A stretch of DNA of 64,000 nt from an uncultured Alistipes sp. GTDB lineage: Bacteria > Bacteroidota > Bacteroidia > Bacteroidales > Rikenellaceae. The notes beneath the pieces were generated by a model that did no database searches, had not been told where the DNA came from, and saw nothing but the letters and a program-made list of their open reading frames with translations. The DNA lies in NCBI GenBank assembly GCA_947367255.1, contig CANBCZ010000003.1:53612-117611 (forward strand). The letters are read 5' to 3'. The position numbers and the translations under genes are program-made. Shown piece by piece: positions 16,213-64,000 of this stretch (position 1 is the first letter of the stretch; each line of letters starts with the position of its first letter).

Positions 16213-16337
16213 TTTTGTTGTCAAAATGCGTTAGAGATGGTGCATCGTAAAAAATTTCAGTCGCGGATAGTACAAAACGTACAGCCGCGACTGAAATTTA
16301 AGCGATGTGCCATATATGACACATTTTCACAACAAAA
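16213..16337 (+). mobile_element. T1 hairpin element abutting the ppiD stop codon
   Basis: 15-bp TIR with 1 mismatch; perfect 15-bp stem aaatttcagtcgcgg/ccgcgactgaaattt; stop codon at 16338-16340. Confidence 0.75.
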
Positions 16338-18362
16338 TTAGAAGTAGCCTACAGTATTATCCTCTACCTCCGCCAGCTCCTGAACTGCATAGAAAGCACG
16401 AGTTGCTGACTGCTCGGCTGCTGCCTGCTGCTTAACCTGCTCAGCCTCGAGAGTCTGAGCCTCATCAGCAGCGGTTACACCGTCGGTAACGAGTACAAAT
16501 ACACCGCTTGCACCCTTTACAGGAGCAGAAACAGCGCCCTGCTCGAGAGCAGAGATAGTACCGAGTACGCGTGGCTCAACGCCGATACCCGGGATATAGT
16601 AAGCATCGTACTTAACATTCTCGAAGGTCTTAACCTCTGACTCTGCAGCTGCAGCAACCTCCTCGATAGTAGCACCTGCCATCTTTGCAGCAATCATCTC
16701 GAACTTCTTGTCGCGGAGCAGAGTGCTCTTAATCTGAGCAGCAACCTCGTTTACAGAGCGGTACTCGCTGTCGGTAATGCCTGTAAGGGTTGCAACTACA
16801 TAGTGGTTGTTATCAAGCTTGATAAGCTCAGAAACATCACCAACCTTAGCCTTGTTAGCCCAGAATACAACCTCGAGAGAGTGACCGTCGATACCGCGAA
16901 CAGAACGAGCAGCCTTCTCGATAGTAACGGTGCGTGAAGCCTGACCCTGAGCAGTAGCAGTAGCGTCGAAGCCCTCCTTTGCAGCAGAGACTGCGAAGAG
17001 GCTTGCTGCGTTGTGAACATCACGCTGAGTAGCCTGTGATGCTACGAGCGGATAGCTGAGTGTAGCGAGCTTATAGTGCTTCTGGATTGCGCTTACGCCA
17101 TCAACCTTGAGGATCTGGATAACATTACCCATAGAGATCTTAACGATATCACCCTTCTTCTTACCGAGCAGTGCATCTGCGAACTCAGGAGCGAGAGTAG
17201 AGTAGGTAACCTCACCAATCTTACCACCCTCAGCAGCAGTCTCTGTAGCGAGTGAGTACTGAGCAGCGAGAGCAGCGAAATCGCCCTTCTTTGCAACAGT
17301 TACGAGGCTGTCAGCGAGCTTATCGTCAGTGTAGTTGAGAACGATGTGGCTGAGAGTATACTTCTCTGCAACATTGCGAACATCTGCTACGCGAGCTGCA
17401 CGCCACTCGTCAGCAACGAGTACAGGACCGTACATCTTGCCCTTAGTAAGAGCTGCGCTCTCCTCAGAGGTCATCTGAGCAGCGGTGATATAGCTCTGAG
17501 CAACTGATGCATGACGGTTCTCACGAGTGTAAGTCTTGAGGTCAGAAACTGTAGCGAACTGCTCTGCAGCAGCCTTAGCCTCAGCCTCGATAGCAGCCTT
17601 ATCTGCATCGGTAGCCTCAACATTGAACTCAACATAAGAGATTGTGCGGAAAGGAGTACGCTTGTACTGAGCCTTATTTGCCTTGTAGTAAGCCTTGATC
17701 TCGCTGTCAGAAACGGTTACGAGAGAGTCTGCAACAGTGTTGTAGCGGCTAACAACATAACGACCGTTGTAGGTGTTGTTTGCGCTCTTTACACCACGCT
17801 CAACCTCAAGCTTATTTGCATAAGCGCCCTTCTGAACAAGTGCCTGATACTTCATCATAGCACGATCGAGGTCAGCCTGCTTGCTGAAGAATGACCAAGC
17901 CTTCTGTGCCTGTGGGTTATTCTCTAACTCTGCAAGGAAAGCTGCTACAGCCTCAACATTGTACTCACCTGTCTGTGGGTTACCAAAGAGGCTTGACATA
18001 ACATTGCTTGCACGCTCACCACGAACAAGAGCCTTGTGCTCTGCCTTACCTACTGCAAGACCGAGCTCCTCGAAGCCTGGGGTAAATACGTGGTCAGAGA
18101 GCAGAATCTGCCAAGTGTTGGCAAGAGCCTGCTGAGCCTGCTCATCTGTAGTGAGCTCGCCCATCTGAGCCTTAACATCGTCATAAGCTGCAAGGAACTC
18201 AGAGTAGTGAATATCCTTGCCATTGATTGCGCCGACCTTAGGGTCATTGCCTGAAAATCCCATCTCTGACTTCAGAGAGAAGATAAACGCCAAAAGCGCG
18301 CCTGCAATAATTACAGAGAGCAGTACGCCGAATTTGGTTCTCATTGTGTTCAAACTTACCAT
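16338..18362 (-). CDS. ppiD: PpiD/SurA-type periplasmic chaperone (peptidyl-prolyl isomerase family)
   Basis: N-terminal TM anchor, SurA_N-like region, rotamase-like HIVL..GDFAALAAQYS..EGGKIG; conserved position after the CBS/gldE gene. Confidence 0.8.
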   Translation of the reverse strand: MVSLNTMRTKFGVLLSVIIAGALLAFIFSLKSEMGFSGNDPKVGAINGKDIHYSEFLAAYDDVKAQMGELTTDEQAQQALANTWQILLSDHVFTPGFEELGLAVGKAEHKALVRGERASNVMSSLFGNPQTGEYNVEAVAAFLAELENNPQAQKAWSFFSKQADLDRAMMKYQALVQKGAYANKLEVERGVKSANNTYNGRYVVSRYNTVADSLVTVSDSEIKAYYKANKAQYKRTPFRTISYVEFNVEATDADKAAIEAEAKAAAEQFATVSDLKTYTRENRHASVAQSYITAAQMTSEESAALTKGKMYGPVLVADEWRAARVADVRNVAEKYTLSHIVLNYTDDKLADSLVTVAKKGDFAALAAQYSLATETAAEGGKIGEVTYSTLAPEFADALLGKKKGDIVKISMGNVIQILKVDGVSAIQKHYKLATLSYPLVASQATQRDVHNAASLFAVSAAKEGFDATATAQGQASRTVTIEKAARSVRGIDGHSLEVVFWANKAKVGDVSELIKLDNNHYVVATLTGITDSEYRSVNEVAAQIKSTLLRDKKFEMIAAKMAGATIEEVAAAAESEVKTFENVKYDAYYIPGIGVEPRVLGTISALEQGAVSAPVKGASGVFVLVTDGVTAADEAQTLEAEQVKQQAAAEQSATRAFYAVQELAEVEDNTVGYF

Positions 18363-18439
18363 ATCAGAATATTTTTTTGTAAAATTTTCAAATAACTCGC
18401 GAATATAGTAATTTTATTCCAATTATTCGCCTTTTTACA

Positions 18440-19708
18440 CTATTTTTTAGCTATCTCTACCCTCGCAAGTTCTATTCGAGAGCGAGTAGTTCGCAAAATC
18501 TTAATCTTCAGTCCGTCGAACTCCATCTGTGTACCCGCCGTAGGTAACTCCTTATAGCGGTAGATAATGTAGCCGGCAAGGGTGTCATACTCCTCACTCT
18601 CGGCAATACCGAGTCCATACTTCTCGTTCAGATACTCAACCTCAAGACGGCACGAGAAGACATACTCGTTCTCTGCCACCTGCTTCTCTACAGCATCCTC
18701 AACATCGTGCTCATCCTCAATCTCGCCAAAGATCTGCTCCAGCACATCCTCAAGCGATATGATACCTGCCGTACCGCCGAACTCGTCAATAACTACGGCG
18801 ATATTACTCTTCTGCTTGATAAACTGCGTCAGAACATCCTGCAGAGGCATTGTCTCGACAACAAAGTCCACCTCGATAAGTACCTGCTCAATACTCTTTG
18901 GAGCGGTAAAGAGGCTCTTTGAATTGACATAACCGATAATATTATCGACACTATCTCTCCAGACGAAGATACGCGAGTATTTACTCTCCACAAAGCGCTC
19001 GGTGAGGCTCTCTATTGTAGTCTCATCAATATCTACAGCCTCCATATCGACACGCGACACCATACAGTCGCGCACGCGGAGATCCGCAAAGTCAAGCGCA
19101 TTCTGGAACATCTTTATCTCCGCCTCGGTCTGGTCGTCAGACTCGGCATTGTTTGTATCGAGCAGACTCTCAAGGTCGCTACGGTCAAACTCGACATCCT
19201 TCTCTGCCTGAGCCGTTGTTCTGCCAAAGAGGCGCAACAGTCCATACGAGAGCAGCGTCGTGAAACGAGCAACAGGATAGAGCAGCAGATAGAATACGAA
19301 GATTATCGGAGAGAAGATACGATAGTAGAAGTTCGGATTTGCCCTAAATACAGACTTAGGGATATACTCGGCAACGAAGATGACAATAATGGTCGGGATG
19401 ATGGTCTCGAGAAGAAATGAGCCCTCACTATAGATACTATCCCAGCCCAACAGATATGCCACACCGCGAATAAGCTGCGACATACACATAGAGTAGATAA
19501 CAAGTGTGATGTTATTACCTACGAGTATAGTTGTGATATATTGCCCCTGATTTTGTGCAAAGATATTGGCAATATAGTCAAAGATGCGGCTCTGTTTACG
19601 ATCAATCTCGAGTTTAAGACGGTTTTTATTCAAAAACGCAATCTCCATACCCGAGAAAAATGCCGACAGAAGCAGCATTAGCAGTATGATTACTATCGAT
19701 GTGGTCAT
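18440..19708 (-). CDS. Hemolysin/CorC-family CNNM-CBS domain protein
   Basis: SAFFSGMEIAF, AEYIPK, VRDCMVSRVDM, VIDEFGGTAGIISLEDVLEQIFGEIEDEHD. Confidence 0.92.
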   Translation of the reverse strand: MTTSIVIILLMLLLSAFFSGMEIAFLNKNRLKLEIDRKQSRIFDYIANIFAQNQGQYITTILVGNNITLVIYSMCMSQLIRGVAYLLGWDSIYSEGSFLLETIIPTIIVIFVAEYIPKSVFRANPNFYYRIFSPIIFVFYLLLYPVARFTTLLSYGLLRLFGRTTAQAEKDVEFDRSDLESLLDTNNAESDDQTEAEIKMFQNALDFADLRVRDCMVSRVDMEAVDIDETTIESLTERFVESKYSRIFVWRDSVDNIIGYVNSKSLFTAPKSIEQVLIEVDFVVETMPLQDVLTQFIKQKSNIAVVIDEFGGTAGIISLEDVLEQIFGEIEDEHDVEDAVEKQVAENEYVFSCRLEVEYLNEKYGLGIAESEEYDTLAGYIIYRYKELPTAGTQMEFDGLKIKILRTTRSRIELARVEIAKK

Positions 19709-19721
19709 TACCTATATAATA

Positions 19722-20456
19722 TTACTCGATACGCTCGCTTGCGCCGGCAAGATTTCTATCCAGCTTTGTCGGTGTGGTAACCCCCTGCTTTCGAGGCGGG
19801 AACTGAGGTTTGGTGCGCTGCGGTTGCTCCTCACGCTTCTCGACTACCGGCTTAGGATTACTCTCTACAGCCGTAGTGTCGCTACCCGACGGCATACTCT
19901 TCTCATCCATCTTCACCTTGCCCTTCCAATGGCGGAAGTTGAGCTCTACAAGCTCCTCATCGGACTCAAAGCCCTCGGTAAAGTGGGTATCGTTATTTGT
20001 TACGATTTTGGTATCTACATTCGAGTAGACTCGTTTGGTAGTAGAGTTCCAGAAGAGTTGCTGGGTATACACCTTTGTTCCGTCGTGCTTGATAATGCGC
20101 ACATTACCCTTAGCCTCCCACAATTTACGATTTTCGTAGTAGATGGCATAGTTGGACTCGATAGTGGCATTGACAGTGGTCAGAGAGTCATCCTGATAGG
20201 TTGTAATCTTGATACCCTTACGGAACTCTCTGTATGGGTCACGACCCAACATATAGCCCTCAAGCAGCGGTGTGGCAAAGCGGTATGAGCGACGACCATT
20301 CTCCGAGACGATAATTGTAAGGTTATTACTCTTCTCGGTCATAATAACGTCGAGAGACTCCTCCTCGCGTACCTGCTCCTCCTTGCACGAAAAGAGCAAA
20401 GCACTCCCCGATAAAAGGAGTGCTATTGCTAAATATCTGTGCAATACTTTTCTCAC
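19722..20456 (-). CDS. lptC: LPS export periplasmic protein LptC
   Basis: Lipoprotein-like N-terminus, WEAKGNV, LFWN..TKRVYS beta-jellyroll; Bacteroidetes synteny. Confidence 0.8.
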   Translation of the reverse strand: MRKVLHRYLAIALLLSGSALLFSCKEEQVREEESLDVIMTEKSNNLTIIVSENGRRSYRFATPLLEGYMLGRDPYREFRKGIKITTYQDDSLTTVNATIESNYAIYYENRKLWEAKGNVRIIKHDGTKVYTQQLFWNSTTKRVYSNVDTKIVTNNDTHFTEGFESDEELVELNFRHWKGKVKMDEKSMPSGSDTTAVESNPKPVVEKREEQPQRTKPQFPPRKQGVTTPTKLDRNLAGASERIE

Positions 20457-20481
20457 TGAACAGTATCTTATATCTTACTGA

Positions 20482-21828
20482 TTACTGACGTGGACGAACG
20501 CGAGTTGAAATGCCCTGTGCAAAGCCGCAGTTTACAACATAGGTTGAACCGTCAGCAAGCTCGTTGAAGAAGCACTCCTCCTTTGTAGGGAATGCACCAC
20601 GATAAGCAGCGGCAAGCTGGTTTGCTGCAGCTACACGGTCAGCATCCTGAGCCTCGAGAAGTGGAAGAGCCTTCTGGATAAGGTCGTATGCAACCCAGTA
20701 GATAGCGTCCTTAGCAAGACCTGAGCAACCCTTTGCACCATTTACATAGCACTGTGCAAGGAAGAATGGAGCGTGTGCGTTCTCAGGGTTGATAGCCTGT
20801 GCCTCACGGAATGCAGCAACTGCAGATGCGAAGTTGTTGATACTCATATCGAGGATACCGATACGAACATAGAGCTTCTCACGCTGCTCTGCGTCCTGCT
20901 CAACTGCAAGTGCCTCACGCAGATACTGGTTAGCCTTGTCGAAGTTACCCTTATCCTGGAATGCCTGTGCAAGTGCCATAGCAACTGATGCAGATGGCTG
21001 GAGTGAGTAGAACTTCTCACCTACAGTGAAGAAGAACTCTGTGTTGCAACCTGTACGAGCAAGGAGGCTGTATGCCTGAGATACGAGCAGCTCGTCATCC
21101 ATATTACCCTCGAGCTTCTTTGAGAAGATAGCCTCGATATTATCGCAAGATGCTGCACCGCTGACGCCAAAGCACTGCTCGAACTGGTTCTTGTACTGCT
21201 GCTGCTCAGGTGCGATGTTCTCGAAATACTTAGCGTATTCGTCGTAAGTATTAACGATAGTCATTGCATCTACGATATCGTTCTGATAGTCGTCGCAGAG
21301 GTTCTTGAAGTAGATAACTACAACCTCATGATCTACTACGCCAGCCTTCTTCTGTGCGTCGAGAGCTGCCTCAAATGCCTCAGCTACACCCTCACGGTCG
21401 TCACCCTTATAGGTGAGGTACTCACGAGCCTTACGCTCGAGGATGTATGCGCTACCACGCTTAGGGTGTGATGCATAGTGCTGCAGACGGATGTCGTAGA
21501 GGAGGATGATTGAATCAACATACATCTTCTTCTCTGCAAGAGTCTCGGCACGGTTTACGCGCTCCTTGTAGAGCTTAACACCGTTTGCATAGATGTTCTC
21601 AGAAGCTGCAGGACACTTAGTCAAGAGCTGCTGCAGATAAGCCGCAGCTGAGTTGAAGTGGCGGTTTGCAATCTCCTCCTTCAGGTATGAGCTTGCAAGC
21701 ATATTCTCCTTGCGCTCCTCCGGAGTCTCACCCCACTTTGCATACTTAGGGTCACTAAAGTCCTGTGCAACAGCTGTTGTTGCCATAGCAGCCATAGCTG
21801 CAATGATTAAAAACTTAATAGCCTTCAT
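20482..21828 (-). CDS. Tetratricopeptide-repeat periplasmic protein
   Basis: Signal peptide, TPR-like helices, C-terminal AIYWVAYD..FPTKEECFF conserved in Bacteroidetes. Confidence 0.8.
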   Translation of the reverse strand: MKAIKFLIIAAMAAMATTAVAQDFSDPKYAKWGETPEERKENMLASSYLKEEIANRHFNSAAAYLQQLLTKCPAASENIYANGVKLYKERVNRAETLAEKKMYVDSIILLYDIRLQHYASHPKRGSAYILERKAREYLTYKGDDREGVAEAFEAALDAQKKAGVVDHEVVVIYFKNLCDDYQNDIVDAMTIVNTYDEYAKYFENIAPEQQQYKNQFEQCFGVSGAASCDNIEAIFSKKLEGNMDDELLVSQAYSLLARTGCNTEFFFTVGEKFYSLQPSASVAMALAQAFQDKGNFDKANQYLREALAVEQDAEQREKLYVRIGILDMSINNFASAVAAFREAQAINPENAHAPFFLAQCYVNGAKGCSGLAKDAIYWVAYDLIQKALPLLEAQDADRVAAANQLAAAYRGAFPTKEECFFNELADGSTYVVNCGFAQGISTRVRPRQ

Positions 21829-21858
21829 TGTGTTGTTTTTTATTGTGTTATTTAATTT

Positions 21859-23986: not shown

Positions 23987-24040
23987 CGTCTCTCGCTCTA
24001 TATTGAGTACTACATTGCCGTTAAATTGCATCTTTACATT

Positions 24041-24070: not shown

Positions 24071-24090
24071 TTCGCCATTTTTACCGCTCG

Positions 24091-29772: not shown

Positions 29773-30019
29773 AGCTGTAAATTTTTGTGTTATTAATTAT
29801 ACCTATTTCTTTACTCAAAAACCTATCTCACTCTCAATCAGAGCGAAATCGGCGACAAATATACACTTATTTTTGCAAAAGGTAAAACTTTCGACCAGTT
29901 TTTTTGAGATTTTTTTGTACTCCGCCACTTTCGTGCGCTCATTTGTCGTCAGAGTTTGCACTCCGTTACCTCTTCGCACTCATTTGTTGTCCAGAGTGAG
30001 ATAATTAAAGTGACGTCCC

Positions 30020-30148
30020 AATTTATCGTCAAAATGCGGTAGTGGGCGTGCATAGCGTAAAAAGCCCTGCGATGGATAGTACTTGAGCGTACAGCCATTG
30101 CAGGGCTTTTTAGCGATGTGCGGCTAATGCCGTATTTTCACGACAAAT
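30020..30148 (+). mobile_element. T1 hairpin element abutting the stop codon of the SRPBCC gene
   Basis: aatttatcgtcaaaat ... attttcacgacaaatt; stem aaaaagccctgcgatgg/ccattgcagggcttttt; GTAC-ttgagc-GTAC. Confidence 0.75.
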
Positions 30149-30556
30149 TTAGATGCGATTGAAAGCTTGAACAAAACCCTCCACAGCCTGATCCAACCCC
30201 TTCTGAATCTTACTGCCAACCATCATACGCATCATCATATTGAGTTCGCAGTGGAGAACCATACGGATACGGGTATCGGTCGGAGTGACCTCGTGGAGCT
30301 GAATCCAGAAGTTGAAGTCGATAGGCACGCCGCCATCGTCGCCGGTAATCTTGACATGCTTACCATAGACCTTATCGACCATACGCAGTTTGACGGTAAA
30401 GCCCTTGACCTTGAACGAGCAGCTATCCTCGGTAGCCTGCCACTCCTCCACCTTATCGGATACAGCGGGGGTAAGCAGCGAAAAGTTGGATATAAGCGGA
30501 TATATCTGTGCTGCCGACTTAAATATCTGACCCTGTTTTGATTCGTACTTCTCCAT
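30149..30556 (-). CDS. SRPBCC/polyketide-cyclase-like protein
   Basis: 135 aa; pattern typical of the Bacteroidetes SRPBCC family (WQATEDSCSF, LNMMMRMMV). Confidence 0.65.
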   Translation of the reverse strand: MEKYESKQGQIFKSAAQIYPLISNFSLLTPAVSDKVEEWQATEDSCSFKVKGFTVKLRMVDKVYGKHVKITGDDGGVPIDFNFWIQLHEVTPTDTRIRMVLHCELNMMMRMMVGSKIQKGLDQAVEGFVQAFNRI

Positions 30557-43726: not shown

Positions 43727-43815
43727 TTTGGCGTCAAAACGGGGCGGTAGTTCGATTAAAACAACAACCGATTTGTCGTCAAAACGTGTTAGAGATGGTG
43801 CATTTTCACGGCAAA
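43727..43815 (+). mobile_element. Internally deleted T1 element preceded by an extra T1 left end
   Basis: atttgtcgtcaaaacgtgttagagatggtgcat joined directly to ttttcacggcaaat. Confidence 0.6.
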
Positions 43816-43821
43816 TACAAA

Positions 43822-44844
43822 TTATATGGAGTGTGACAGAGGCGGCGGAACCACTCCCCCAAACTCATAATCCCCCCAACGCTCGGCAATTGACGATATA
43901 GTATCTTGAAGTTCATCGACATCGGTGAGGGTGACGAGTTTCATACGAGTCTGCTTGAAGTCGGGAAGTCCCTTGAAGTAGTTGGAGAGGTGGCGACGCA
44001 TCTCGAAGACACCGACCTTATCGCCCTTAATCTCTACGGACTTTGCAAGGTGTTCTTTTGCAATAGCGATACGCTCAAGGACTGATGGTTGCGGGAGCAG
44101 CTCGCCAGTTTCGAGGTAGTGCCTTACCTCGCGGAAGATCCATGGGCGACCATATGTTGCACGACCAATCATCACACCATCTACGCCATAGCGGTCAAAC
44201 ATCTGCTTAGCCTTCTCGGCGGAGTCAATATCGCCATTTCCGATAATCGGGATATGGATTGTCGGGTCGTTCTTAATCTTTCCAATCAGGGTCCAGTCCG
44301 CCTCACCGGTATATAGCTGGCAACGAGTACGACCGTGGATAGTCAGGGCTGCGATACCCACATCCTGCAGGCGATGGGCTATCTCCTCGATATTTTTACT
44401 ATCATCATCCCAGCCAAGGCGGGTCTTTACGGTAACAGGTTTCTTCACGGCATTGACTATCTGGCGAGTCATCTCGACCATCAGCGGCACATCACGCATC
44501 ATACCCGAGCCTGCGCCACGACCGGCAATCTTCTTCATAGGACAGCCGAAGTTGATGTCGATAACATCGGGATCAGCACCCTCGGCAATGCGTGCAGCCT
44601 CGACCATCGGCTCTATCTGGTTACCGTAGATCTGAATACCTACGGGGCGTTCAAAGTCGTTTATATTGAGCTTTGCAAGCGACTTGCGGGCATCGCGGAT
44701 AAGTCCGTCGGAGGAGATAAACTCCGTAGTTACCATATCTGCGCCAAATCGCTTACACATATAGCGAAATGACGGATCGGTAACATCCTCCATAGGTGCC
44801 AAAAAGAGCGCTCGGTCGCGCAACTGAACATCTCCAATCTTCAT
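43822..44844 (-). CDS. dusB: tRNA-dihydrouridine synthase
   Basis: LAPMEDVTD, IDINFGCP, GAGSGMM, TVKTRLGW, IHGRT, IGNGDI, MIGRA. Confidence 0.95.
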   Translation of the reverse strand: MKIGDVQLRDRALFLAPMEDVTDPSFRYMCKRFGADMVTTEFISSDGLIRDARKSLAKLNINDFERPVGIQIYGNQIEPMVEAARIAEGADPDVIDINFGCPMKKIAGRGAGSGMMRDVPLMVEMTRQIVNAVKKPVTVKTRLGWDDDSKNIEEIAHRLQDVGIAALTIHGRTRCQLYTGEADWTLIGKIKNDPTIHIPIIGNGDIDSAEKAKQMFDRYGVDGVMIGRATYGRPWIFREVRHYLETGELLPQPSVLERIAIAKEHLAKSVEIKGDKVGVFEMRRHLSNYFKGLPDFKQTRMKLVTLTDVDELQDTISSIAERWGDYEFGGVVPPPLSHSI

Positions 44845-51198: not shown

Positions 51199-51425
51199 TT
51201 TGAAGCTGCTCGTAGGTCTGAAAAGCGGAGTTTACTTTGTCGTAAATGAACATTTTCAGAACAAGGCAGATGCCAAAAGAGCCTTGTTAGACCTTTATTA
51301 CTTTTATAAGAATTTGTATAACAAAAGCTATTTTGAAGCTGCTCGCAGATCTGAAAAGCGGAGTTTACTTTGTCGTAAATGAGCATTTTCAGAACAAGGC
51401 AGATGCCAAAAGAGCCTTGTTAGAC
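51199..51425 (+). repeat. Tandem pair of 94-bp hairpin elements (51199-51292, 51332-51425)
   Basis: 3 differences in 94 bp; core ctgaaaagcggagtttac-tttgtc-gtaaatga(a/g)cattttcag. Confidence 0.85.
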
Positions 51426-51434
51426 GAATTCTTA

Positions 51435-52877
51435 CTATTTGCAGTTCTTCAGCACATCTAAAAGCAACGCCCAGAACTTATCTACAGTTGCAATCTCCAA
51501 TCGCTCGTCAGGCGAGTGTACGCCGCGCAGGGTTGGTCCGAAAGAGACCATCTCGAGGTGTGGATACTTCTCGAGGAAGAGTCCGCACTCAAGACCTGCG
51601 TGGATAGCGCGCACCTTCGGCTCGGCAGCAAAGAGTCGCTTATATGACTCGAAAGTTGTTGCAAGCAGAGCTGACGATGGGTCAGGAGTCCAGCCCGGAT
51701 AGCCGTCAGAGTGCTCTACCTCAGCACCTGCGAGGGTAAGAACAGCCTCGATGCTGTGCATTGCGTCGCGCTTTGCACGCTCGACAGAGGAGCGCTGTGA
51801 GGTGGTAACGACAATCTGATTTTCCACAAACTTTACAGATGCGAGGTTTGTCGAGGTCTCGACAAGACCCTTCATAGTCTGCGAGAAGGCGAGAACTCCA
51901 TTTGGAAGACCAACGAGTGCAGAGAGCAGTGCCGACTGTGTATCCTCGTCGATTACAGGTTGCAGAGCCGCCTCGCCAACAGTAATCTTCAGATTTGGCT
52001 CGGTAGGGGCATAGAGTGCCTTTACTGCCGAGATATATGTTGCAAGTGCAGTCTCAAAGAGGAGTGCTGTCTGCTCCGGAACAGCAACAACGGTGTATGC
52101 CTCGCGAGGGATGGCATTTCTAAGATTACCACCATCGAACATACCCAGACAGATGCCGTAGCGCTGTGCGTCATAGAGGAAGGCAGCCAAAATCTTATTG
52201 GCATTACCCAGACCCTTATCGATATCGTCGCCCGAGTGACCACCCTTCAGACCCGCAACATTGATACGGTAGAGGAGATACTCTCCCTCCAAAGTCTCTG
52301 TTGTATAGTCGAAGCGGGCAAGGGTATCCACACCACCGGCACAGCCGATAAATATCTCACCCTCATCCTCAGAGTCGAGGTTTATCAGGTACTTGCCTGT
52401 AAGCATACCCTCACCGAGGTTGAAAGCACCGGTAAGACCGGTCTCCTCATCAACAGTAAAGAGTGCCTCGATAGCTCCGTGCTCGACAGCAGGGTCGATA
52501 AGCACCGCGAGTGCCGCTGCCATACCGATACCACAATCGGCGCCGAGTGTAGTACCCTCTGCCTTTACCCAACCATCGACAATCTTTGTACGGATCGGGT
52601 CGGTATCGAAGTTGTGAACGGTATCCGAGTTCTTCTCGCAGACCATATCCATATGCGACTGCAAAATAACTGTCGGCAGAGCCTCATAGCCTGCAGTGGC
52701 AGCTTTACGAATAACGACATTGCCAATCTCGTCGCGCTGAGCCTCCAAAGAGTGCTTTGCGGCGAAGGCAAGCAGGTAGTCGATAATCTTCTCCTCACGC
52801 TTTGACGGGCGTGGAACAGCTGTAATCTCATCAAAAATCTCCCAGATGAGTTTTGGTTGTAAATCTCTGATAGTCAT
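51435..52877 (-). CDS. pepD: Aminoacyl-histidine dipeptidase (M20)
   Basis: LQSHMDMV, TTLGADCGIG, TVDEETGL, NLDSEDEG, IHAGLECG, HSPDE. Confidence 0.95.
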   Translation of the reverse strand: MTIRDLQPKLIWEIFDEITAVPRPSKREEKIIDYLLAFAAKHSLEAQRDEIGNVVIRKAATAGYEALPTVILQSHMDMVCEKNSDTVHNFDTDPIRTKIVDGWVKAEGTTLGADCGIGMAAALAVLIDPAVEHGAIEALFTVDEETGLTGAFNLGEGMLTGKYLINLDSEDEGEIFIGCAGGVDTLARFDYTTETLEGEYLLYRINVAGLKGGHSGDDIDKGLGNANKILAAFLYDAQRYGICLGMFDGGNLRNAIPREAYTVVAVPEQTALLFETALATYISAVKALYAPTEPNLKITVGEAALQPVIDEDTQSALLSALVGLPNGVLAFSQTMKGLVETSTNLASVKFVENQIVVTTSQRSSVERAKRDAMHSIEAVLTLAGAEVEHSDGYPGWTPDPSSALLATTFESYKRLFAAEPKVRAIHAGLECGLFLEKYPHLEMVSFGPTLRGVHSPDERLEIATVDKFWALLLDVLKNCK

Positions 52878-53367: not shown

Positions 53368-53371
53368 ACTA

Positions 53372-54664: not shown

Positions 54665-54683
54665 TGTTTATTGGATTAGAGTG

Positions 54684-56105: not shown

Positions 56106-56211
56106 CTGTTAGCCTTACAGATGTATCCGCAAAGCGGATGAATATTTATATTTTTGCACTCCACACTATTTCTGCGCTGTTTTGTCAGAGAGTATAATCA
56201 AAGCGACGACC

Positions 56212-56338
56212 AATTTATTGTCAAAACATGTTAGCGATGGTGCATAGTGAAAAATTTCAGCCTCGGATAGTACAAAACGTACAACCGAGGCTGAAATTTG
56301 AGCGATGTGCCATATATGACACATTTTCACGATAAATT
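56212..56338 (+). mobile_element. T1 hairpin element overlapping the stop codon of the phosphoesterase gene
   Basis: aatttattgtcaaaa ... ttttcacgataaatt; perfect stem aaatttcagcctcgg/ccgaggctgaaattt. Confidence 0.75.
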
Positions 56339-59111
56339 ATTCCATTAGAGTGTAGTCGTAGTCAGCAGTAACCTCACTGCAAACATATTTGGTACCAAAA
56401 CGATCGGTAGCCTCAACACGAATATTGGTTGTGTTCGGATTTTTGAGGGTATACTTATACATATGGTAGCAAGCGTTCGAATATGAGCTATTCTTACCGC
56501 GACCAACTACGCCAATATGGTAGCCGATGCTCCACCAGTCCTGACTCGAGTCAGTAGGCACAAGGCACGGATAGTCACCCAGCGCGTCGGCATTGTACTT
56601 CTTTGCAGGGATGAGGCTCATAGTACCGCTAAGGGTGCCATCTTCGTAGACCTCAACCTTCCACGAGGAGTCTGCATTGAAGACATTTGCGAGCAGCACG
56701 CCGTGACCGAGCTGAGTATTGAAACTCTTGCTCGGAGTACCGCCCTTAATATCACCACGATAGAGGCGCATCTGGTAGTTGCGGTCGTCCATACCCTTAT
56801 TTACACCCATATAGTACCAATTCTTGATGGTAGCACCCTCAATGTCGTAGACGCCGTAGCCGTTAGGCACTCCATCGGCGTTCATATTGGACCACCACCA
56901 CTGACCGCACACTGCGCCGTGAACATGCTCATACAGACCACTTGACTCGATATTGCGACCATAGTGGGTATGACCTGCCATAATGTGAGCCTCCTTGAAC
57001 TGCTTGAGAAGGGCGATAGCGCTCTTTATATTGGCGTTACTTGAGGTCGAGATTGGGATATGCACGCAGAGGATAACGAGTTTATCCTTCGGCACAACAG
57101 CAAGATCCTGACGCAACCACTCGAGCTGCTCGTTGGTAAATGCTGTTGAGTATGAGCTCCAAGTATCGTTCTTGCTCCACTGCATAGTACGCATACCGAC
57201 AATATGCGCATCGCCACGATTCCACGAGTAGTTGATAGGTCCGAAGACAGTCTCAAATGCTCGCTGCGCCTTGATATTATAGGTCGAAGATGTTGCGTCG
57301 GCGCTAATCGGTTTGTTGGTGTGGAAGTATGTGTAGTCGTGGTTACCCATAACATTGAAGATAGGCATACCTGCCTTGTCTATATGCATCTTATCGCGCA
57401 TATCGTCCATAAATGCCTCATTATTTCGACTACCCTCCGAATAGACAACATCACCCAGAGTGGTACCATAGCAAGGTGCGCTCTTTGTTGCGGCGTGAGC
57501 CTTGATGGCAGGGATAGACTCGTTTGCAAAGCGGTCACCGTGACGACGACCCTTATTATCGGTTGCTGTATTATCCTTACACTGCGGATCGGCAAGGCAG
57601 AAGAGTGTAAAGGCGCTCTCCTTACCACCCGCAAGCTTTGTCAGAGTGAAGTTATAGACGGTATTCTTGCGGTCGTAGCGCGCAAAGAAGCAAGGCTGAC
57701 CGTAGTTATTTGTATCCACCTTACAATCTGCAGGCACAGAGTAGTAGATATACCAGCAATCCTTATGCGGGGTGATTGTATATTTACCCGCACTATCGGT
57801 CTTTACAACGCTATAGCCGTCAGATACTGCTACACCTGCCGCAGGAGTACCATCAGAGTAGGTTATAGTACCTGTAACATCAACAATCGGAGCCTCCTTA
57901 TAGGACTTGATAGATACACAGATATCATCGAGCATAAAGCGGTTGGTCTCTGTTGCACCCAGCGCACCACCGATAGCAATGGCAGAGGTCGAGGTGACAT
58001 CTGTAAGGGTCACTGTATACTCCTTCCAATCCGAGATCAGATCACCCTCGAGAGTCACATTCTGCTCCGAAGCAACACTCAGGTAATCTACGCTGTAGTT
58101 TGTGTTGTATGTAACATCTTTCAGAGCCTTTACGGTTATATAACGCTCGGCATCATTAACACTGCCATTCTCCATTGTTCCGTAGGTAACAGCCTTAAAC
58201 TTAACCTCTACAGTCGCCTCCTTATCATCAGGAATAGCAGAGAGCAATGGTGTACAGATAAATGAGCGGTTGGCAGTAGTACCGATCTTAACATAACCCG
58301 GACGGGCACATATAGAGCCACCTGTAGCACCACTCTTGCCGCCAATCCAACCCCAACCGTCAATACCGGCCTCATCCAGAATACCCTTGAGGGTATTGAA
58401 CAGACCAATCTCCACATCGGCACCTGTCATATAGTAGCCAGAGTTTGCTACAGTAATCTCTCCCTTGCAGTCGGCATCGCTAAACGAGTTGAGAGAGCCG
58501 CGATCTGTACGCGACAGACCGGCACCGCGAGAGGTTATATCGCCGGCATAGATAAGTCCGTCAAAGTTCTCAAAGAGGATAATGTCCGAAGGCTGCGCAT
58601 TTGTTGTAACGACACTCTTCTTGTCGGCTACCGATGCCTTGGTCACTACACGCAGCGCCTTTGCATTGGATGTGCCGTCTGTAAGGTTCTCAACCTTTAC
58701 ATAGTATGTCGTTCTCTGCTTAAGACCGGTAAATACAAAGCGTGGCGGACAGGTCTTGCTGTTATAGAGTGCCTTTGCATCCACCATATTCTCCTGAATA
58801 GGGCTTACGCTTACCTCTACATTTGTACACGCAGAGTTGTTATAGAGCGAAACTCTATACTGCTTTGTAATATCCTCCGAATAGTCTGCCTCGGGGCTCG
58901 GCTCAATCTGTCCGATATATGGCACATTGCTCTCGGTGATGGTCCAACCGATAGTAATTGTGCTATCTGTAGCCCTTACAACCGCTACATTAAGGTTAGG
59001 ATCTACCTCGACTGCAGGCGGAGTCTGAGTAGGTTCTTCGCCATTTGGCTCAGGGTTACAGGCAACCAGCAGAGCCGAAAGCGCGACAATTGATACTAAA
59101 AATCTCTTCAT
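56337..59111 (-). CDS. Lipoprotein with FN3-like, jelly-roll-like and calcineurin-like metallophosphoesterase domains
   Basis: Lipobox LVAC; LADPQ, LGDVVY, GNHDY, VHIP, GHTH; C-terminal GAVCGQWW..DGVPNGY. Confidence 0.88.
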   Translation of the reverse strand: MKRFLVSIVALSALLVACNPEPNGEEPTQTPPAVEVDPNLNVAVVRATDSTITIGWTITESNVPYIGQIEPSPEADYSEDITKQYRVSLYNNSACTNVEVSVSPIQENMVDAKALYNSKTCPPRFVFTGLKQRTTYYVKVENLTDGTSNAKALRVVTKASVADKKSVVTTNAQPSDIILFENFDGLIYAGDITSRGAGLSRTDRGSLNSFSDADCKGEITVANSGYYMTGADVEIGLFNTLKGILDEAGIDGWGWIGGKSGATGGSICARPGYVKIGTTANRSFICTPLLSAIPDDKEATVEVKFKAVTYGTMENGSVNDAERYITVKALKDVTYNTNYSVDYLSVASEQNVTLEGDLISDWKEYTVTLTDVTSTSAIAIGGALGATETNRFMLDDICVSIKSYKEAPIVDVTGTITYSDGTPAAGVAVSDGYSVVKTDSAGKYTITPHKDCWYIYYSVPADCKVDTNNYGQPCFFARYDRKNTVYNFTLTKLAGGKESAFTLFCLADPQCKDNTATDNKGRRHGDRFANESIPAIKAHAATKSAPCYGTTLGDVVYSEGSRNNEAFMDDMRDKMHIDKAGMPIFNVMGNHDYTYFHTNKPISADATSSTYNIKAQRAFETVFGPINYSWNRGDAHIVGMRTMQWSKNDTWSSYSTAFTNEQLEWLRQDLAVVPKDKLVILCVHIPISTSSNANIKSAIALLKQFKEAHIMAGHTHYGRNIESSGLYEHVHGAVCGQWWWSNMNADGVPNGYGVYDIEGATIKNWYYMGVNKGMDDRNYQMRLYRGDIKGGTPSKSFNTQLGHGVLLANVFNADSSWKVEVYEDGTLSGTMSLIPAKKYNADALGDYPCLVPTDSSQDWWSIGYHIGVVGRGKNSSYSNACYHMYKYTLKNPNTTNIRVEATDRFGTKYVCSEVTADYDYTLME

Positions 59112-59116
59112 ATTAT

Positions 59117-62100
59117 CTATTTAGTCATTAACGAATAGTCATAGTCGCCAATAATATCCGAACTTGAGTATGTTCTGCCAAAGCGGTCAGTAGCCTCAAC
59201 ACGAATCTTGGCACTCTTATTCTTTAGAGTATACTTGTACACATGGAAGCAGTTAGAGAGGTAATTTGTACGATTTCCACCGCTGTAACCACGACCCACA
59301 ACGCCAATATGGTAGCCGATAGCCCACCAATCCTGACTTGATGAGGTGCTTGGCTTTGTAGGATTACCTGCATCCGGAGTGGTCTTCTTATTAGGAATCA
59401 TAGTCATATTACCCGAATATGCGCCATCCTCATAGACTTTGATAACCCACTCCTTGTCGGCATTGAAGACATTTGCAAGCAGAACATTATCACCAAACTG
59501 CAGCTCGAACTTCTCGTATTCTCCACCACACTTCATGTTACCACGATAGAGGCGCATCTGGTAGTCACGGTCGTTCATACCATTATTAAAGCCCTTGTAG
59601 TACCAATTTGTGATTGTATTGCCGTCAATATCGTATACTCCATAGCCATTAGGAGCACCATCTCCATTGACTCTTGACCACCACCAGTTACCGCATACCG
59701 CAGCGTGAATATGCTCAAAGATACCACCCGAGAGTGTCGGCTCGTTACGAGAGTAGTGGGTATGACCCGACATAATGTGAGCCTCCTTGAACTGCTTGAG
59801 CAGCGCGATTACATTCTGAACATTCTTGTTGCTCGAGTTTGTGATAGGAATATGTACGCAGAAGATAACCATCTTATCCTTAGGCACATACTGCAGATCC
59901 TGACGCAACCAGTTGTACTGCTCGTCGGTAAAGCACATGGTATACTTAGACGCATCGGAGTTTGAGGTCCACTGCATATTTCGCATACATACGATATGCA
60001 CATCACCACGATCCCACGAGTAGTCGATAGGTCCAAAGACAGCCTCAAACTCACGCTGAGCCTTCATATTGTAGGTCGATGAGGTCTCATCGGCAGAGAT
60101 TGGAGAGCCCGACTGGAAGTATGTATAGTCGTGGTTACCCATTGTCTGGAAGATAGGCATACCGATATTGCTATTTGACATATGGGTACGCAGGTACGGC
60201 ATCTGAGACACGCAATTTCGTTTACCCTCAGAGTATGCCACATCGCCCAAAGTGACGCCATAGCAAGGTACACCCTTTGTCGAGATATGAGTCTTTACAT
60301 CAGGCACACACTCGTTATTGAAGCGGCTACGGTGTGTTGCATCCTTACACTGCGGATCGGCAAGGCAGAAGAGTGCAAACTTGCTCTCCTTGCCATTTGG
60401 CAGCTTCTTCAGGGTAAAGCTGTAGCCGGTCTGACCCTCTACATACTTTGCAAAGAATGCAGGCTGTCCGTAGCTGTTGATAGGCACCTGACAATCTGCC
60501 GGAACAGTATAATATATATAATAGGTATCCTGACATACGGTCAGCGAGTACTTACCCTCTGCATCGGTCTGAGTAACCTCAAAACCGTCAGATACAGATA
60601 CGCCTACAGCCGGTGTACCATCCTCATACGTGAGGTATCCGCTCACAACATCCACTGCAGGGGCATCCTCGAGTTTATCGACATAGATTCTCACATCGTC
60701 AAGCAGCAGTCGGCAGGTTGTTGTCGGTCCTGCGCCACCACCCAGCGAGATTGATGCACCTGATGGGACATTGGTAAGGGTGACGGTATACTCGCGCCAA
60801 TCCCAAATCTCCTGCGATGTAAGTTCAAACTTTTGCTCGCTCACAACGCCCTGATAGTTCATTCTGTAGTCAGATGCAAGCGACGGCTTTGCAAGTGCAC
60901 GAACACTCATCATGCGCTCACCCTCATTGGTCACATAGGCGTTTGGACTGCCGTAAGGGATTGCCTTGAAGACAATGCGCAGCGAGGCGACCTTATCCTG
61001 CGGAATAGCCGACAGCGCCGGAGTACATACATGCGAGCAGTTGTTAGCCGTACCAATCTTGAGATAACCGGTGCGGGCACATACAGAGCCACCTGTAGCG
61101 TCACTCTTGCCACCAATCCAACCCCAATTCTGGAAGCCATAGTCATCGACAAGGTTCTTCATTGTATTAAACAGACCAATCTCGGTACCAGACGGAGCGG
61201 CATAGAAGCCTGTGCTGCTTGATACAATCTCACCCTTGAGCGGAGCAATCTCGGTAAGTTTATTTCTATCTGTGCGAGATACGCCCGCTGCATAGGAGCA
61301 CATATCGCCGGCATAGATAAGGGATGCGAAGTTCTCGAAGAGAATCATATCACCCTCCTTGGCATTGCTCTTAACGACCTTTGCAGGGTCTACCACAGTC
61401 GCCGAGGTGGTAATCTCGACAATATTCGACTCATAGTCGTCGGTAGTATCCCACACCTTTGCATAGTACTTTGTGCTTGGAGCAAGACCTGTAAAGACAA
61501 AGCGCGGAGGATTGATTTTAGCAGTATATACAGACCCGCCATTGAGTTTATCGTCCTTAATGTCGCTTACGCTAACGATAAGGTCGGTACAAGCAGCATC
61601 GTTGTAGAGTGCCACCTTGTAGGTCTTGGTAATATCTACCGAGTAGTCGGCAGCCTCATTCGGACGCACCTGACTAAGATAAGGGACATTTGACGCAGTG
61701 ATAGTCCAGCCGATAACACCTGTAGAGTCTGTTGCACGGACAAACTTAGCAACAAGGTTACTCTGGGCAACATAGCAGCCATCCTCCAGCTGACCGAACG
61801 AAGCTACCTTTGTAAACTTTGTAACATCCAAATTGAGGGTGTAGATATAACCCGCCTCAAAGTTCTTTGTAGGTCGCTTGCAGAAGGTGTAAGAACCTCG
61901 GTTGGTCTTGACGATATAGAAGACCTTACCCTCAGATGCTGTCCACGCCACAGGGGCAACAAGTGCCCAACCATCGGTCGAAGTGCCTGTCTCCGGATTC
62001 TGGTAGTTTACGGTAACAGCACTCTCCGACGCCTTTGCAAGTGTAAGTGTGTTGATATCTACAGTTGCTCTTCCCGAGAGTTTGTCATTCTCGGCACTCA

Positions 62101-62737
62101 TAGTAACAGAGAGAATCTCCTCATTATCCGCCACCTTGATATTGAAGCGGGCAACAGATGCCAACATCTTAAAGTCGAATGTATGTCCGTTGTCGGATGT
62201 AGTACCGATCATAATATTACGCTCCTGATCGCTCTGACCGACAATATTCGAGTAGCGCTGTGCTGTCGGGATATTTACGCTCAGAACACCCTCAAAAGAG
62301 TCTCCCGCAGCACGGGTTTCATCCCACGGAGTCTCCACCTCACCGAGTGACGGCAGTGTCGCACCTGCAGAGGTGTTACTAAATATAGCCGCCGAGTATG
62401 GCGATACACCATAGAGAGGCTTTGAGTCACTGAATGTAACACCCTTAGATGTATCGGCAACAACAAATGTTCCTACATCGCTACCCTCTCCCGAGTCGAG
62501 GTTGTACTTGGCAATATTTTCACCATCTGTCACTGCAAGACAATCGGTGTGGTGCCAATAGATATTCAAATCACCATCCGTACCCAATACAGAGAAAGTA
62601 CGCGAATTGTCATTTGCAATCTTAGCCGTAAAGGAGTCTATCTTACGACCCGAAACAATATCCAGACTCTCCTCAGTATCGACACAAGCGACAGCCGCAA
62701 GCAGAGCCACTACAGAAATCAATAAAAATCTCTTCAT
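59117..62737 (-). CDS. Lipoprotein with fimbrillin-like N-domain plus the same phosphoesterase module
   Basis: Lipobox AVAC; FTAKIANDNSRT..W..D..V and GYIYTLNL fimbrillin-like pattern; LADPQ, GNHDY, GHTH. Confidence 0.85.
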   Translation of the reverse strand: MKRFLLISVVALLAAVACVDTEESLDIVSGRKIDSFTAKIANDNSRTFSVLGTDGDLNIYWHHTDCLAVTDGENIAKYNLDSGEGSDVGTFVVADTSKGVTFSDSKPLYGVSPYSAAIFSNTSAGATLPSLGEVETPWDETRAAGDSFEGVLSVNIPTAQRYSNIVGQSDQERNIMIGTTSDNGHTFDFKMLASVARFNIKVADNEEILSVTMSAENDKLSGRATVDINTLTLAKASESAVTVNYQNPETGTSTDGWALVAPVAWTASEGKVFYIVKTNRGSYTFCKRPTKNFEAGYIYTLNLDVTKFTKVASFGQLEDGCYVAQSNLVAKFVRATDSTGVIGWTITASNVPYLSQVRPNEAADYSVDITKTYKVALYNDAACTDLIVSVSDIKDDKLNGGSVYTAKINPPRFVFTGLAPSTKYYAKVWDTTDDYESNIVEITTSATVVDPAKVVKSNAKEGDMILFENFASLIYAGDMCSYAAGVSRTDRNKLTEIAPLKGEIVSSSTGFYAAPSGTEIGLFNTMKNLVDDYGFQNWGWIGGKSDATGGSVCARTGYLKIGTANNCSHVCTPALSAIPQDKVASLRIVFKAIPYGSPNAYVTNEGERMMSVRALAKPSLASDYRMNYQGVVSEQKFELTSQEIWDWREYTVTLTNVPSGASISLGGGAGPTTTCRLLLDDVRIYVDKLEDAPAVDVVSGYLTYEDGTPAVGVSVSDGFEVTQTDAEGKYSLTVCQDTYYIYYTVPADCQVPINSYGQPAFFAKYVEGQTGYSFTLKKLPNGKESKFALFCLADPQCKDATHRSRFNNECVPDVKTHISTKGVPCYGVTLGDVAYSEGKRNCVSQMPYLRTHMSNSNIGMPIFQTMGNHDYTYFQSGSPISADETSSTYNMKAQREFEAVFGPIDYSWDRGDVHIVCMRNMQWTSNSDASKYTMCFTDEQYNWLRQDLQYVPKDKMVIFCVHIPITNSSNKNVQNVIALLKQFKEAHIMSGHTHYSRNEPTLSGGIFEHIHAAVCGNWWWSRVNGDGAPNGYGVYDIDGNTITNWYYKGFNNGMNDRDYQMRLYRGNMKCGGEYEKFELQFGDNVLLANVFNADKEWVIKVYEDGAYSGNMTMIPNKKTTPDAGNPTKPSTSSSQDWWAIGYHIGVVGRGYSGGNRTNYLSNCFHVYKYTLKNKSAKIRVEATDRFGRTYSSSDIIGDYDYSLMTK

Positions 62738-62749
62738 AACTCCCCCTCT

Positions 62750-62893
62750 CTACCAAGCGTCGCCGCCATTATTATAGTCCAATATACTGTCTTTATCCGC
62801 TCCGGGTATGTTGTCAGGAATGTCAGACTCCGCAAAGCCACGCTCCGGAATAAACTGATAGGCTGCCACCTCTGGCTTTAAGTACTTTTTCAT
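62750..62893 (-). CDS. 47-aa leader-like peptide preceding the fimbrillin-like gene
   Basis: Hand translation MKKYLKPEVAAYQFIPERGFAESDIPDNIPGADKDSILDYNNGGDAW; promoter -7 box TATCTTTG at 62942-62949; 12 nt from the next ATG. Confidence 0.7.
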   Translation of the reverse strand: MKKYLKPEVAAYQFIPERGFAESDIPDNIPGADKDSILDYNNGGDAW

Positions 62894-63068
62894 ATAGGTT
62901 AAGTTTTAAGTGTTCGACTGTAAATATCCTAAGATATTTAACAAAGATAGGAATAAAAATTCAAAACACAAAATCCACGACAATTCTTAGGCTATTGGCT
63001 ATTAGCTATTGGCTTACCGATTATAGGAAGATTAGGAAATTTAGGAAGTTTAATTAATGTGACGCATT

Positions 63069-63188
63069 TTATCGTCAGAGTGCTGTAGTTGCGGTATATC
63101 GTGAAAAATCCCCGGATGGGTCGTACTGAGCGTACTACCCATTCGGAGATTTGAGGGATGTGCCGCAAATGCGGCACTATCACGATAA
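63069..63188 (+). mobile_element. T1 hairpin element, close relative of 7450-7571
   Basis: ggtatatcgtgaaaaatccccggatggg..gtac..gtactacccattcggagatttgagggat. Confidence 0.7.
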
Positions 63189-63244
63189 TACCAATTTGTT
63201 GTCAAAAGGTAGTAGAAAAAGCCTCAAACAACGCAATAGCTAAA

Positions 63245-63360
63245 TTGATTTTAGGCGAGAAATTTCCACGCTCGCTCTAAAAAACAACGAAGGGCTGTAC
63301 TGCGCGTACTGCCCTTTGTTGGAGTTTAGAGTAGCGGAAGAAATTTCCGCATAAAATCGA
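63245..63360 (+). mobile_element. T2-terminus hairpin element abutting the decarboxylase beta-subunit stop codon
   Basis: ttgattttaggcg ... ccgcataaaatcga; core gggctgtac-tgcgc-gtactgccc; stop codon at 63362. Confidence 0.7.
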
Positions 63361-63361
63361 T

Positions 63362-64000
63362 TTAGCCCAGGAAGGCGAGGAGAATACCAGCCGCAACCGC
63401 CGAACCCACAACACCTGCTACGTTTGGACCCATAGCGTGCATGAGAAGGAAGTTTGACTTGTCGTACTCCTGACCTACGGTCTGAGATACACGTGCTGCC
63501 ATAGGCACTGCAGATACACCTGCAGAACCAATCAGTGGGTTAATCTTCTTACCCTCCTTAGCGAAGAGGTTCATAAGCTTTGCAAGAAGAACACCACCTG
63601 CAGTACCGCAACTAAATGCGAGGATACCCAGAACGAGGATACCCAGAGTCTTGAAGTTGAGGAATGAACCTGCAGTAGCAGTAGCACCTACAGAGATACC
63701 GAGGAAGATAACCACGATATTCATCAGCTCGTTCTGAACGGTCTTTGAGAGACGATCCACAACGCCACACTCCTTCATAAGGTTACCGAGCATCAGACAG
63801 CCCACGAGTGGAGCAGCAGATGGGAGGAGGAGTGAGATAACAACAGCGATGATAACAGGGAAGAGAATCTTCTCAGTCTTAGATACCTGACGCAGCTGTG
63901 ACATCTTAATCTTACGCTCTGCATCGGTAGTCAGCGCGCGCATAATTGGCGGCTGAATAACCGGTACCAGTGCCATATAAGAGTAAGCAGCGATAGCGAT
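63362..64000 (-). CDS. Na+-translocating decarboxylase beta subunit (OadB/MmdB/GcdB family), 5' end outside the window
   Basis: [49 protein letters not shown]. Confidence 0.95.

Follow-up and report, generated by a model that had tools for sequence, protein, structure and literature searches.

The 64,000-nucleotide stretch analysed here (the window in what follows) comes from an uncultured Alistipes sp. (contig CANBCZ010000003.1, positions 53,612 to 117,611 of the forward strand), and carries in its intergenic regions a palindromic repeat family whose copies in the window measure 122-127 nt by repeat finder and direct reading. We refer to this family as the A-type repeat. The right end of the A-type repeat, as read on the + strand, is placed directly on the stop codons of neighbouring genes, in many cases sharing bases with them, and this one-sided placement is the subject of our analysis. 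The window contains the following junctions of A-type copies, of a second palindromic family and of B-type repeats, as well as one A-type copy that lies elsewhere:

104-139, + strand: truncated end of a B-type repeat (...GCAGAAATAACCTT), flush on the stop of a dTDP-glucose dehydratase-like (rfbB-like) gene (junction reading, Pfam)
7450-7571, + strand: A-type copy away from any stop, after groEL
16214-16337, + strand: A-type copy, TTTGTTGTCAAAA ... TTTTCACAACAAA plus one A, flush on the stop of a ppiD-like gene (repeat finder, junction reading)
30022-30149, + strand: A-type copy of the AA..TT kind at an SRPBCC/CoxG-like gene (junction reading, orthologous sites)
43772-43821, + strand: internally deleted A-type copy with a 6-nt remnant, flush on the dusB stop (junction reading, Pfam)
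51199-51425, + strand: two tandem 94-nt B-like repeats by an M20 peptidase (pepD-like) gene
56214-56338, + strand: A-type copy of the AA..TT kind at a calcineurin-like phosphoesterase gene (junction reading, Pfam)
63245-63363, + strand: copy of the second palindromic family (inverted repeat AAATYGATTTTAKGCG, GTAC..GTAC apex) at the oxaloacetate decarboxylase beta gene (junction reading)

At the ppiD-like gene (Pfam SurA_N_2/Rotamase), the copy covers 16214-16336 and is followed by one A and then by the TTA of the stop codon at 16338-16340. At the SRPBCC/CoxG-like gene, the copy (30022-30147) is followed by one T and by the TTA stop at 30149-30151, with the terminal TT (30148-30149) overlapping the first base of the stop. 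The junction at the phosphoesterase gene is tighter still, as the copy at 56214-56336 meets the TTA at 56337-56339 with zero gap and its terminal TT constitutes the first two bases of the stop codon. A first-pass annotation of this DNA had described repeat ends on the TAA stops of these three genes, and the distances of 0-1 nt or overlap bear this out. The same annotation listed dusB and the oxaloacetate decarboxylase beta gene alongside them. Both stops are indeed contacted, but at dusB the contact is made by 6 nt (TACAAA) that remain of an older right end and lie between the deleted copy at 43772-43815 and the TTA stop at 43822-43824, and at the decarboxylase gene it is made by the second family, which ends ...AAAATCGAT at 63361 and overlaps the TTA stop at 63362-63364 with its last TT. 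In two related loci (L064 and L085; sampled loci carry L numbers) the end of this gene has an A-type copy in place of the second family. For the B-type repeats, flush placement holds at the rfbB-like gene, where ...AACCTT ends at 139 and the TTA stop occupies 140-142 (gap 0 nt). It does not hold at the pepD-like gene, for which a junction at 51432-51437 had been proposed: the TTA at 51432-51434 is not the stop, and the true stop, CTA (TAG) at 51435-51437, lies 9 nt from the nearer repeat, which ends at 51425. The exception to stop placement in the window is the copy at 7450-7571. It follows the groEL stop at a distance of 94 nt, beyond the native terminator of that gene, lies upstream of the promoter for a gene starting at 7701, and has orthologous copies in L051 and L071.

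The counts given below derive from two scans, a pattern scan of species-representative genomes and a scan of metagenome contigs. The pattern scan placed the A-type family in more than 100 stretches in at least about 24 assemblies of Alistipes/Rikenellaceae. Our sample comprises 110 copies from the window and 100 loci (1.2-8 kb) in about 24 assemblies, among the matches listed, and nearly all of these loci come from Alistipes/Rikenellaceae assemblies of ruminant and other herbivore guts. Within the 860 kb of sampled loci, a profile of the repeat family gave 192 non-redundant matches. Because the scan pattern demanded intact inverted repeats and the tetranucleotide KTAG, conservation of those letters carries no information, and copies with trimmed or damaged ends are under-sampled. 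The only match outside the Bacteroidota, L004 (Clostridium drakei), lacks the hairpin repeat features and was rejected as a chance pattern match in AT-rich DNA; it was left out of all statistics.

Defining a junction as flush when the right end lies at offset 0-1 from the stop of a convergent open reading frame (ORF) of at least 80 codons, we found flush right ends in 57 of 106 usable copies (54%), representing 47 distinct gene ends in 21 assemblies, and right ends within 14 nt of a stop in 82 of 106. No left end of the 100 that could be assessed lay at offset 0-2, and random positions fall at offset 0-1 in 0.4% of cases. The simplest explanation would be chance, in that short intergenic gaps bring any repeat close to a stop, but all that speaks for it is that bacterial genes generally lie close together. 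Copies lie in intergenic regions with a median length of 387 nt, and if each copy is placed at a random position and in a random orientation within the region that it occupies, 1.18 flush copies are expected among 79, whereas 44 of 79 were observed (Poisson P ~2e-52). Together with the absence of flush left ends, this leaves chance with practically no credibility, and the stop-directed placement proposed in the first-pass annotation is real when the distribution of distances is compared with random expectation.

The orientation of the copies follows the neighbouring gene and not the replicon. Within 8-kb loci, copies are co-oriented in 46 cases and mixed in 6, and some of the mixed loci have two copies that face each other between convergent genes (L082, L012). 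A replication-strand cause of co-orientation was considered and rejected in view of these facing pairs and of the GC skew of the window, which merely follows gene direction. General genome compaction was likewise rejected as the cause of flush junctions, since native terminators in the same genomes are not flush but lie, at empty orthologous sites, 18-27 nt from the stop. Diverged relatives of the A-type family are likewise flush on the neighbouring gene in three more distant species, and junctions of this flush, overlapping kind are also formed at the same genes by several repeat families that are unrelated to one another.

The first-pass annotation had offered a preference for TAA-containing targets as one explanation of this placement. 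[quoted passage not shown] Consistent with this, TAA makes up 54 of 61 flush stops, compared with a background usage in the loci of 60% TAA, 30% TAG and 10% TGA, and the right flank opens with TT in 64-73% of copies. However, this TT is part of the inverted repeat and pairs with an AA on the left. Among the 42 AA-left copies, classed by the left flank alone and independently of the stop, TT is present at +1+2 in 37, including copies beside a tRNA gene or remnants. These copies constitute a subfamily with the inverted repeat AATTTG...CAAATT, in which the gene gives only the T of its stop and the element gives the AA. Their flush stops are TAA in 29 of 29 cases (P = 3.7e-7 against the 60% background), and in no case does a complete, separate stop stand before the copy. 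In AT-left copies the stop is at offset 1, with a one-base overlap (11 TAA, 1 TGA and 1 TAG), and the junction of the second family at 63362 is of like geometry. The TAA excess thus arises because the terminal TT of the repeat doubles as stop-codon bases, as a by-product of maximal overlap.

A TAA target also fails on the available sites. In 175 element-free intergenic regions we counted 1317 TAA/TTA trinucleotides and 97 border TAA stops, such that only 6.9% of extragenic TAA/TTA sites are stops, yet copies that touch a TTA nearly all touch a real stop, and copies away from stops mostly have no free-standing TTA. Junctions with TAG and TGA stops, with tRNA ends and with stops inside the repeat also occur, and a trinucleotide that is found on both strands cannot yield strict polarity. 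No target-site duplication was detected, in that no 2-6-nt direct repeat exceeded the shuffled control at any tested boundary (TGCAC stands on both sides at 2 loci only, L046 and L093, and is anecdotal), and no fixed flank motif was found at the tested boundaries. We consequently regard a TAA or TTA target preference as a very unlikely sufficient cause. We also considered whether the stop and repeat end might together form a Bacteroidota -7 promoter box (TAnnTTTG), and rejected this idea as the spacing suits only a minority of junction types.

Several junctions indicate what the repeat end respects in place of a particular trinucleotide. Three copies adjoin tRNA genes (tRNA-Thr and tRNA-Arg) at the discriminator base, at a distance of 0-1 nt. 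About 6-7 long ORFs run into the repeat and terminate on its internal TGA; one of these, in L094, has lost its last 9 codons relative to its empty ortholog in L031 and has 3 repeat-encoded codons instead, ending ...RHLS*, and an ORF in L012 is 2 codons shorter than its empty ortholog in L083. At empty orthologous sites the position of the stop is the same. The most complete series comes from the SRPBCC site, which was compared over 80 metagenome relatives. Relatives with at most 84% identity are all empty, and L104 (88% protein identity) is also empty, with the same C-terminus NRI and a TAA stop. Full A-type copies occupy the site in the window and in L063, while the L102 repeat extends over the last codon and the stop (ATT TAG TCGTGAAAA) with the protein end NRI preserved, and in L103 the trimmed end of another family is flush on the TAA. 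From this series (L104, L063, L102, L103) it follows that the limit of the element is the functional 3' end of the gene, and that trimming can affect either partner. A separate type of junction is seen in L079, at a site orthologous to that of L067. In L067 the copy there is complete, but in L079 only a solo left repeat, TTTTGTTGTCAAAA, is flush on the TTA stop, with the interior and the right repeat gone.

The whole A-type unit forms a single long imperfect hairpin, with a 13-nt inverted repeat and co-varying inner helices. On the + strand, the first half consists of the terminal repeat TTTRTYGTCAAAA, a variable 5-nt helix strand (P1), (G/T)TAG, a second helix (P2), an A-run and a GC-rich apex stem, and the second half of a T-run, the return strands, ATG and the other terminal inverted repeat, TTTTCACRAYAAA. 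The apex loop carries GTAC..GTAC or, alternatively, ATAC..GTAT or GTAG..CTAC. The (G/T)TAG is enclosed by an outer helix and stands at the foot of P2, a position that it occupies in each of the 7 copies of the window, whose detection did not involve the pattern. Among the pattern-selected copies it reads GTAG in 84 and TTAG in 26, the pattern itself having demanded KTAG. In the fold it lies opposite ATG, and 103 of 109 copies have a T.G pair at TAG/ATG. Each arm is, for about 55 nt, an inverted copy of the other, with KTAG on the left arm only and CAT/ATG at the corresponding place of the right arm. A C.C mismatch inside the inverted repeat is constant, and in 78 of 108 copies the palindrome continues for at least 2 nt outside the 13-nt repeat. 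Across 109 copies, 4-6 different canonical pair types are found at the P1 pairs, indicating that this helix is maintained by compensatory change, and outer and inner modules reassort among copies.

This fold is a property of one strand. Mean folding energy is -66.7 kcal/mol for the + strand and -51.9 kcal/mol for the other, and the + strand, which is antisense to the adjoining gene, folds better in 108 of 109 copies. For the same set of pairs, G.U wobble pairs make up 8.0% on the + strand versus 1.1% on the other, and mismatches 4.6% versus 11.5%. A U-run of at least 5 is present on the gene-sense strand in 55 of 109 copies, versus 28 of 109 on the other strand, and one of at least 4 on the gene-sense strand in 71 of 109. 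A simple terminator scanner called no copies because the apex loop exceeds its limit.

These features bear on the second possibility raised in the first-pass annotation, taken as a function of the repeat at the RNA level which needs zero spacing, with only flush and correctly oriented copies being kept; the hairpin might, for example, be opened by the terminating ribosome, or the lack of a single-stranded 3' untranslated region might deny access to nucleases or Rho. The conserved 13-nt repeat arm is about as long as the mRNA that a terminating ribosome covers downstream, and work by Liang, Rudd and Deutscher in 2015 is said to have found that repetitive extragenic palindromic (REP) elements within about 15 nt of a stop affect translation in E. 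coli. The gene-sense strand has the better U-run, and its weakened basal helix could avoid stalling. Against such a function, the fold is optimised on the antisense strand and not on the mRNA, tRNA genes are abutted as well, native terminators lack the flush arrangement, few copies lie at intermediate distances, and filtering random insertions down to 0 nt in more than half of the copies would entail a very large waste. On balance we consider this explanation unlikely.

Comparison of orthologous gene ends shows that these sites are renewed while the gene end stays fixed. Which subfamily or family occupies a given gene end differs between species, and at the ppiD site the occupant varies even between strains that are at least 95% alike. 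In about 11 loci an intact copy is separated from the stop by 6-11 nt left over from an older right end, and in L031 a copy is nested inside the right repeat of a resident copy. Of 42 arrays, 34 have their most intact copy on the gene-proximal side. Near-identical copies at separate loci of one genome are all already flush. Two copies in L044 and L045 have near-identical interiors and different end bases, which suggests gene conversion as well as movement.

The reading that we favour, with a probability of roughly 0.45, combines a one-sided process at the right end of the repeat, limited by purifying selection on the gene, with renewal, a terminator role and mobilisation through single-stranded DNA. 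New or converted copies would arise beside or within the right end of a resident copy, small junction deletions would then close the gap to the gene, and older copies would decay on the far side, with purifying selection on the gene setting the limit of the right-end process. Selection at the 3' end, the other explanation raised in the first-pass annotation, has a place in this scheme, but as purifying selection on the gene limiting the one-sided process. The apex hairpin and U-run may serve the gene as an intrinsic terminator. As it is the strand antisense to the gene that preserves the fold, a single-stranded DNA intermediate and a strand-specific enzyme are suggested, and a Y1 HUH (RAYT-like) transposase would be a candidate for the latter. 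Within this picture, the observations establish the anatomy, the polarity, the tight junctions, the sharing of stop-codon bases and the turnover, and the enzyme, the dynamics of deletion and renewal and the terminator role are inferred.

Several points weigh against this reading. Deletion or insertion events were not observed directly, and the reading does not account for the first colonisation of a virgin gene end. A convincing U-run is present in only about half of the copies. No ORF with an HUH..Y motif, and no transposase, was found in the 860 kb of sampled loci, and the gene flanked by facing copies in L081 yields small non-transposase proteins. Finally, the flushness of young, near-identical copies suits direct placement, or conversion from older flush copies, at least as well as a slow ratchet.

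This last point is what an alternative based on direct gene-end homing accounts for best. Here the machinery would read the polarity of gene expression, through the termination of transcription or translation or a structure arising at that point, and integrate at the 3' boundary, and the odd junctions would reflect later trimming. Such homing would fit the polarity that follows the gene, the intactness of the gene-proximal copy and the flush, overlapping junction that unrelated repeat families share at the same genes. To our knowledge, however, no DNA-level signal marks both the stop codon and the tRNA 3' end to the nucleotide. The overlap with the stop varies by subfamily (2, 1 or 0 nt), which implies that a cut is not made at a fixed distance from any gene feature. 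ORFs ending within the repeat and trimmed repeat ends would need extra events, and the L044/L045 pair resembles gene conversion. Direct homing is therefore improbable in our view, although it keeps a sizeable share of probability, given that young copies are already flush and virgin colonisation is otherwise unexplained. A more specific version, in which the machinery reads the direction and end of expression and not a DNA motif, homes to the 3' boundary of any expressed gene (stop or tRNA end), arrives gene-proximally and pushes older copies outward, seems to us somewhat more doubtful; the homing agent may in that case be one mobile element, or several families sharing one enzyme.

Among repeat systems described so far, the REP/REPIN elements are, by comparison of features, probably the closest known relatives of the A-type family. 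Like the A-type repeat, REPs, their mosaic arrays (BIMEs) and REPINs are short extragenic palindromes present in many copies and in arrays. They are mobilised by RAYT (TnpA-REP, Y1 HUH) transposases and have a GT[AG]G-like tetranucleotide at the hairpin foot and strand-specific structure. REPs lie mostly at gene 3' ends, for most convergent REPs both ORFs are less than 20 bp away, and a stop codon is often contributed by the terminus of a GTAG REP (PMC3733652). The A-type repeat appears to differ in architecture, as it is one hairpin, about 125 nt long, as opposed to the REPIN doublet of two short REPs, and a 13-nt inverted repeat of its own surrounds the (G/T)TAG, which in contrast to canonical REPs lies within an outer helix. 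It differs as well in the strictness of its polarity (0 of 100 for the other end), in that more than half of its junctions are flush or overlapping, and in its host phylum, the Bacteroidota. RAYT subclasses 2.4 and 2.6 do occur in Bacteroidetes, with long or atypical hairpins (PMC6006769). No RAYT gene is linked to the A-type family in the sampled loci, and as such a link defines the REP/REPIN group we do not file the A-type repeat as a shown member of it. Flush repeats at gene 3' ends accordingly have precedent in REPs; what differs is the architecture, the strict polarity, the share of flush junctions and the host phylum.

Other systems share individual traits. The IS200/IS605-derived palindrome-associated transposable elements (PATEs) also lack target duplication and have hairpins that are recognised on one strand only, and a PATE-type single-stranded DNA logic would explain the strand-biased G.T pairs of the A-type repeat. 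PATEs, however, take their orientation from replication and use insertion sites 3' of a fixed tetra- or pentanucleotide, whereas A-type orientation follows the gene and no fixed flank motif was found for A-type copies. Correia/NEMIS, ERIC, RUP and other MITEs resemble the A-type repeat in length (100-150 nt) and in their terminal inverted repeats. Such elements are co-transcribed with their neighbours and provide terminator or processing sites, and some overlap ORF ends. MITEs, on the other hand, leave target-site duplications behind (TA in the case of Correia) and may be inserted in one orientation or the other, neither of which is true of the A-type repeat, and no parent insertion sequence with A-type ends was found in the sampled loci. 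Integron attC sites are similar in their manner of working, though not by membership, as one-strand-folded imperfect palindromes with conserved unpaired bases, whose start lies at the stop codon of the cassette gene before them or overlaps with it. In contrast to attC sites, the A-type repeat has no integrase, cassette structure or R/L box consensus, and its neighbours are housekeeping genes in conserved synteny. An Rfam search of the window returned tRNA-His only, a relaxed search gave only far sub-threshold hairpin matches, and our search of the literature on Alistipes repeats yielded no description of this family. The A-type elements are part of a large and apparently undescribed superfamily of palindromic repeats, 120-127 nt long and similar to REPINs or MITEs, in herbivore-gut Alistipes.

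Palindromic repeats are common in bacteria, but their choice of site is poorly understood, and almost all work has been done on Proteobacteria. The rule in this Bacteroidota family is unusually clean, as only one end is involved and lies flush with, or overlaps, stop codons and tRNA ends, and the dataset separates motif targeting, selection and polar placement, which are usually mixed. Direct homing to gene ends, if true, would constitute a new targeting principle for bacterial mobile DNA; renewal and trimming limited by selection, if true, would provide a natural read-out of the functional 3' boundary of each gene. For annotation, the consequence is that stop codons and a few C-terminal residues come from repeat DNA.

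The window also contains diverged or more degenerate units on the gene-distal side of these copies:

16010-16200, + strand: gene-distal, more degenerate palindromic unit of the ppiD array, with apex GTACTATGCGTAC
29942-30021, + strand: degenerate left-end remnants (TTTGTCGTCAGAG..., TTTGTTGTCCAGAG...) distal to the intact SRPBCC copy
63068-63244, + strand: gene-distal array members at the oxaloacetate decarboxylase beta gene, where 63068-63189 is an A-type copy that has diverged and, from 63195, the second family is preceded by an A-type left end fused to it

Some of these regions, and others nearby, vary among related DNA. In the ppiD array, several DNA sequencing runs have 15-16 nt (ATCACGCCAAAACAG or ATCACCTCAAAATCAA) in place of 16122-16213, and other contigs change to another subfamily interior past 16234. 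A palindromic element between groES and groEL (5487-5724) is polymorphic in cattle-gut runs, with contigs that skip 122, 92 or 202 nt. Tandem 41-nt units occur distal to intact copies in L069 (3700-3830), in the window (29942-30021) and in L038, L046 and L100; each unit consists of the solo left repeat TTTGTCGTCAGAG and TTTGCACTCCGCTTACTCTTTGCACGCA, and the whole resembles piled internally deleted copies. Short tandem units of 8-9 nt (TTAGGGAR / CTTAAACTC and complements) adjoin palindromic repeats in many loci, to the left of the repeats in L015, L067, L007, L013, L047 and L098, and at 63025-63060 in the window. Short repeats of the GCTATTAGCC / GGCTATTGGC type recur intergenically in the window (62990-63020), in L008, L041 and L073, and at the empty SRPBCC site, downstream of the stop in L104. 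Lastly, metagenome contig X25 joins 13767 to 14731, skipping 963 nt, which may be a strain-level indel covering a small gene at 14205-14654.

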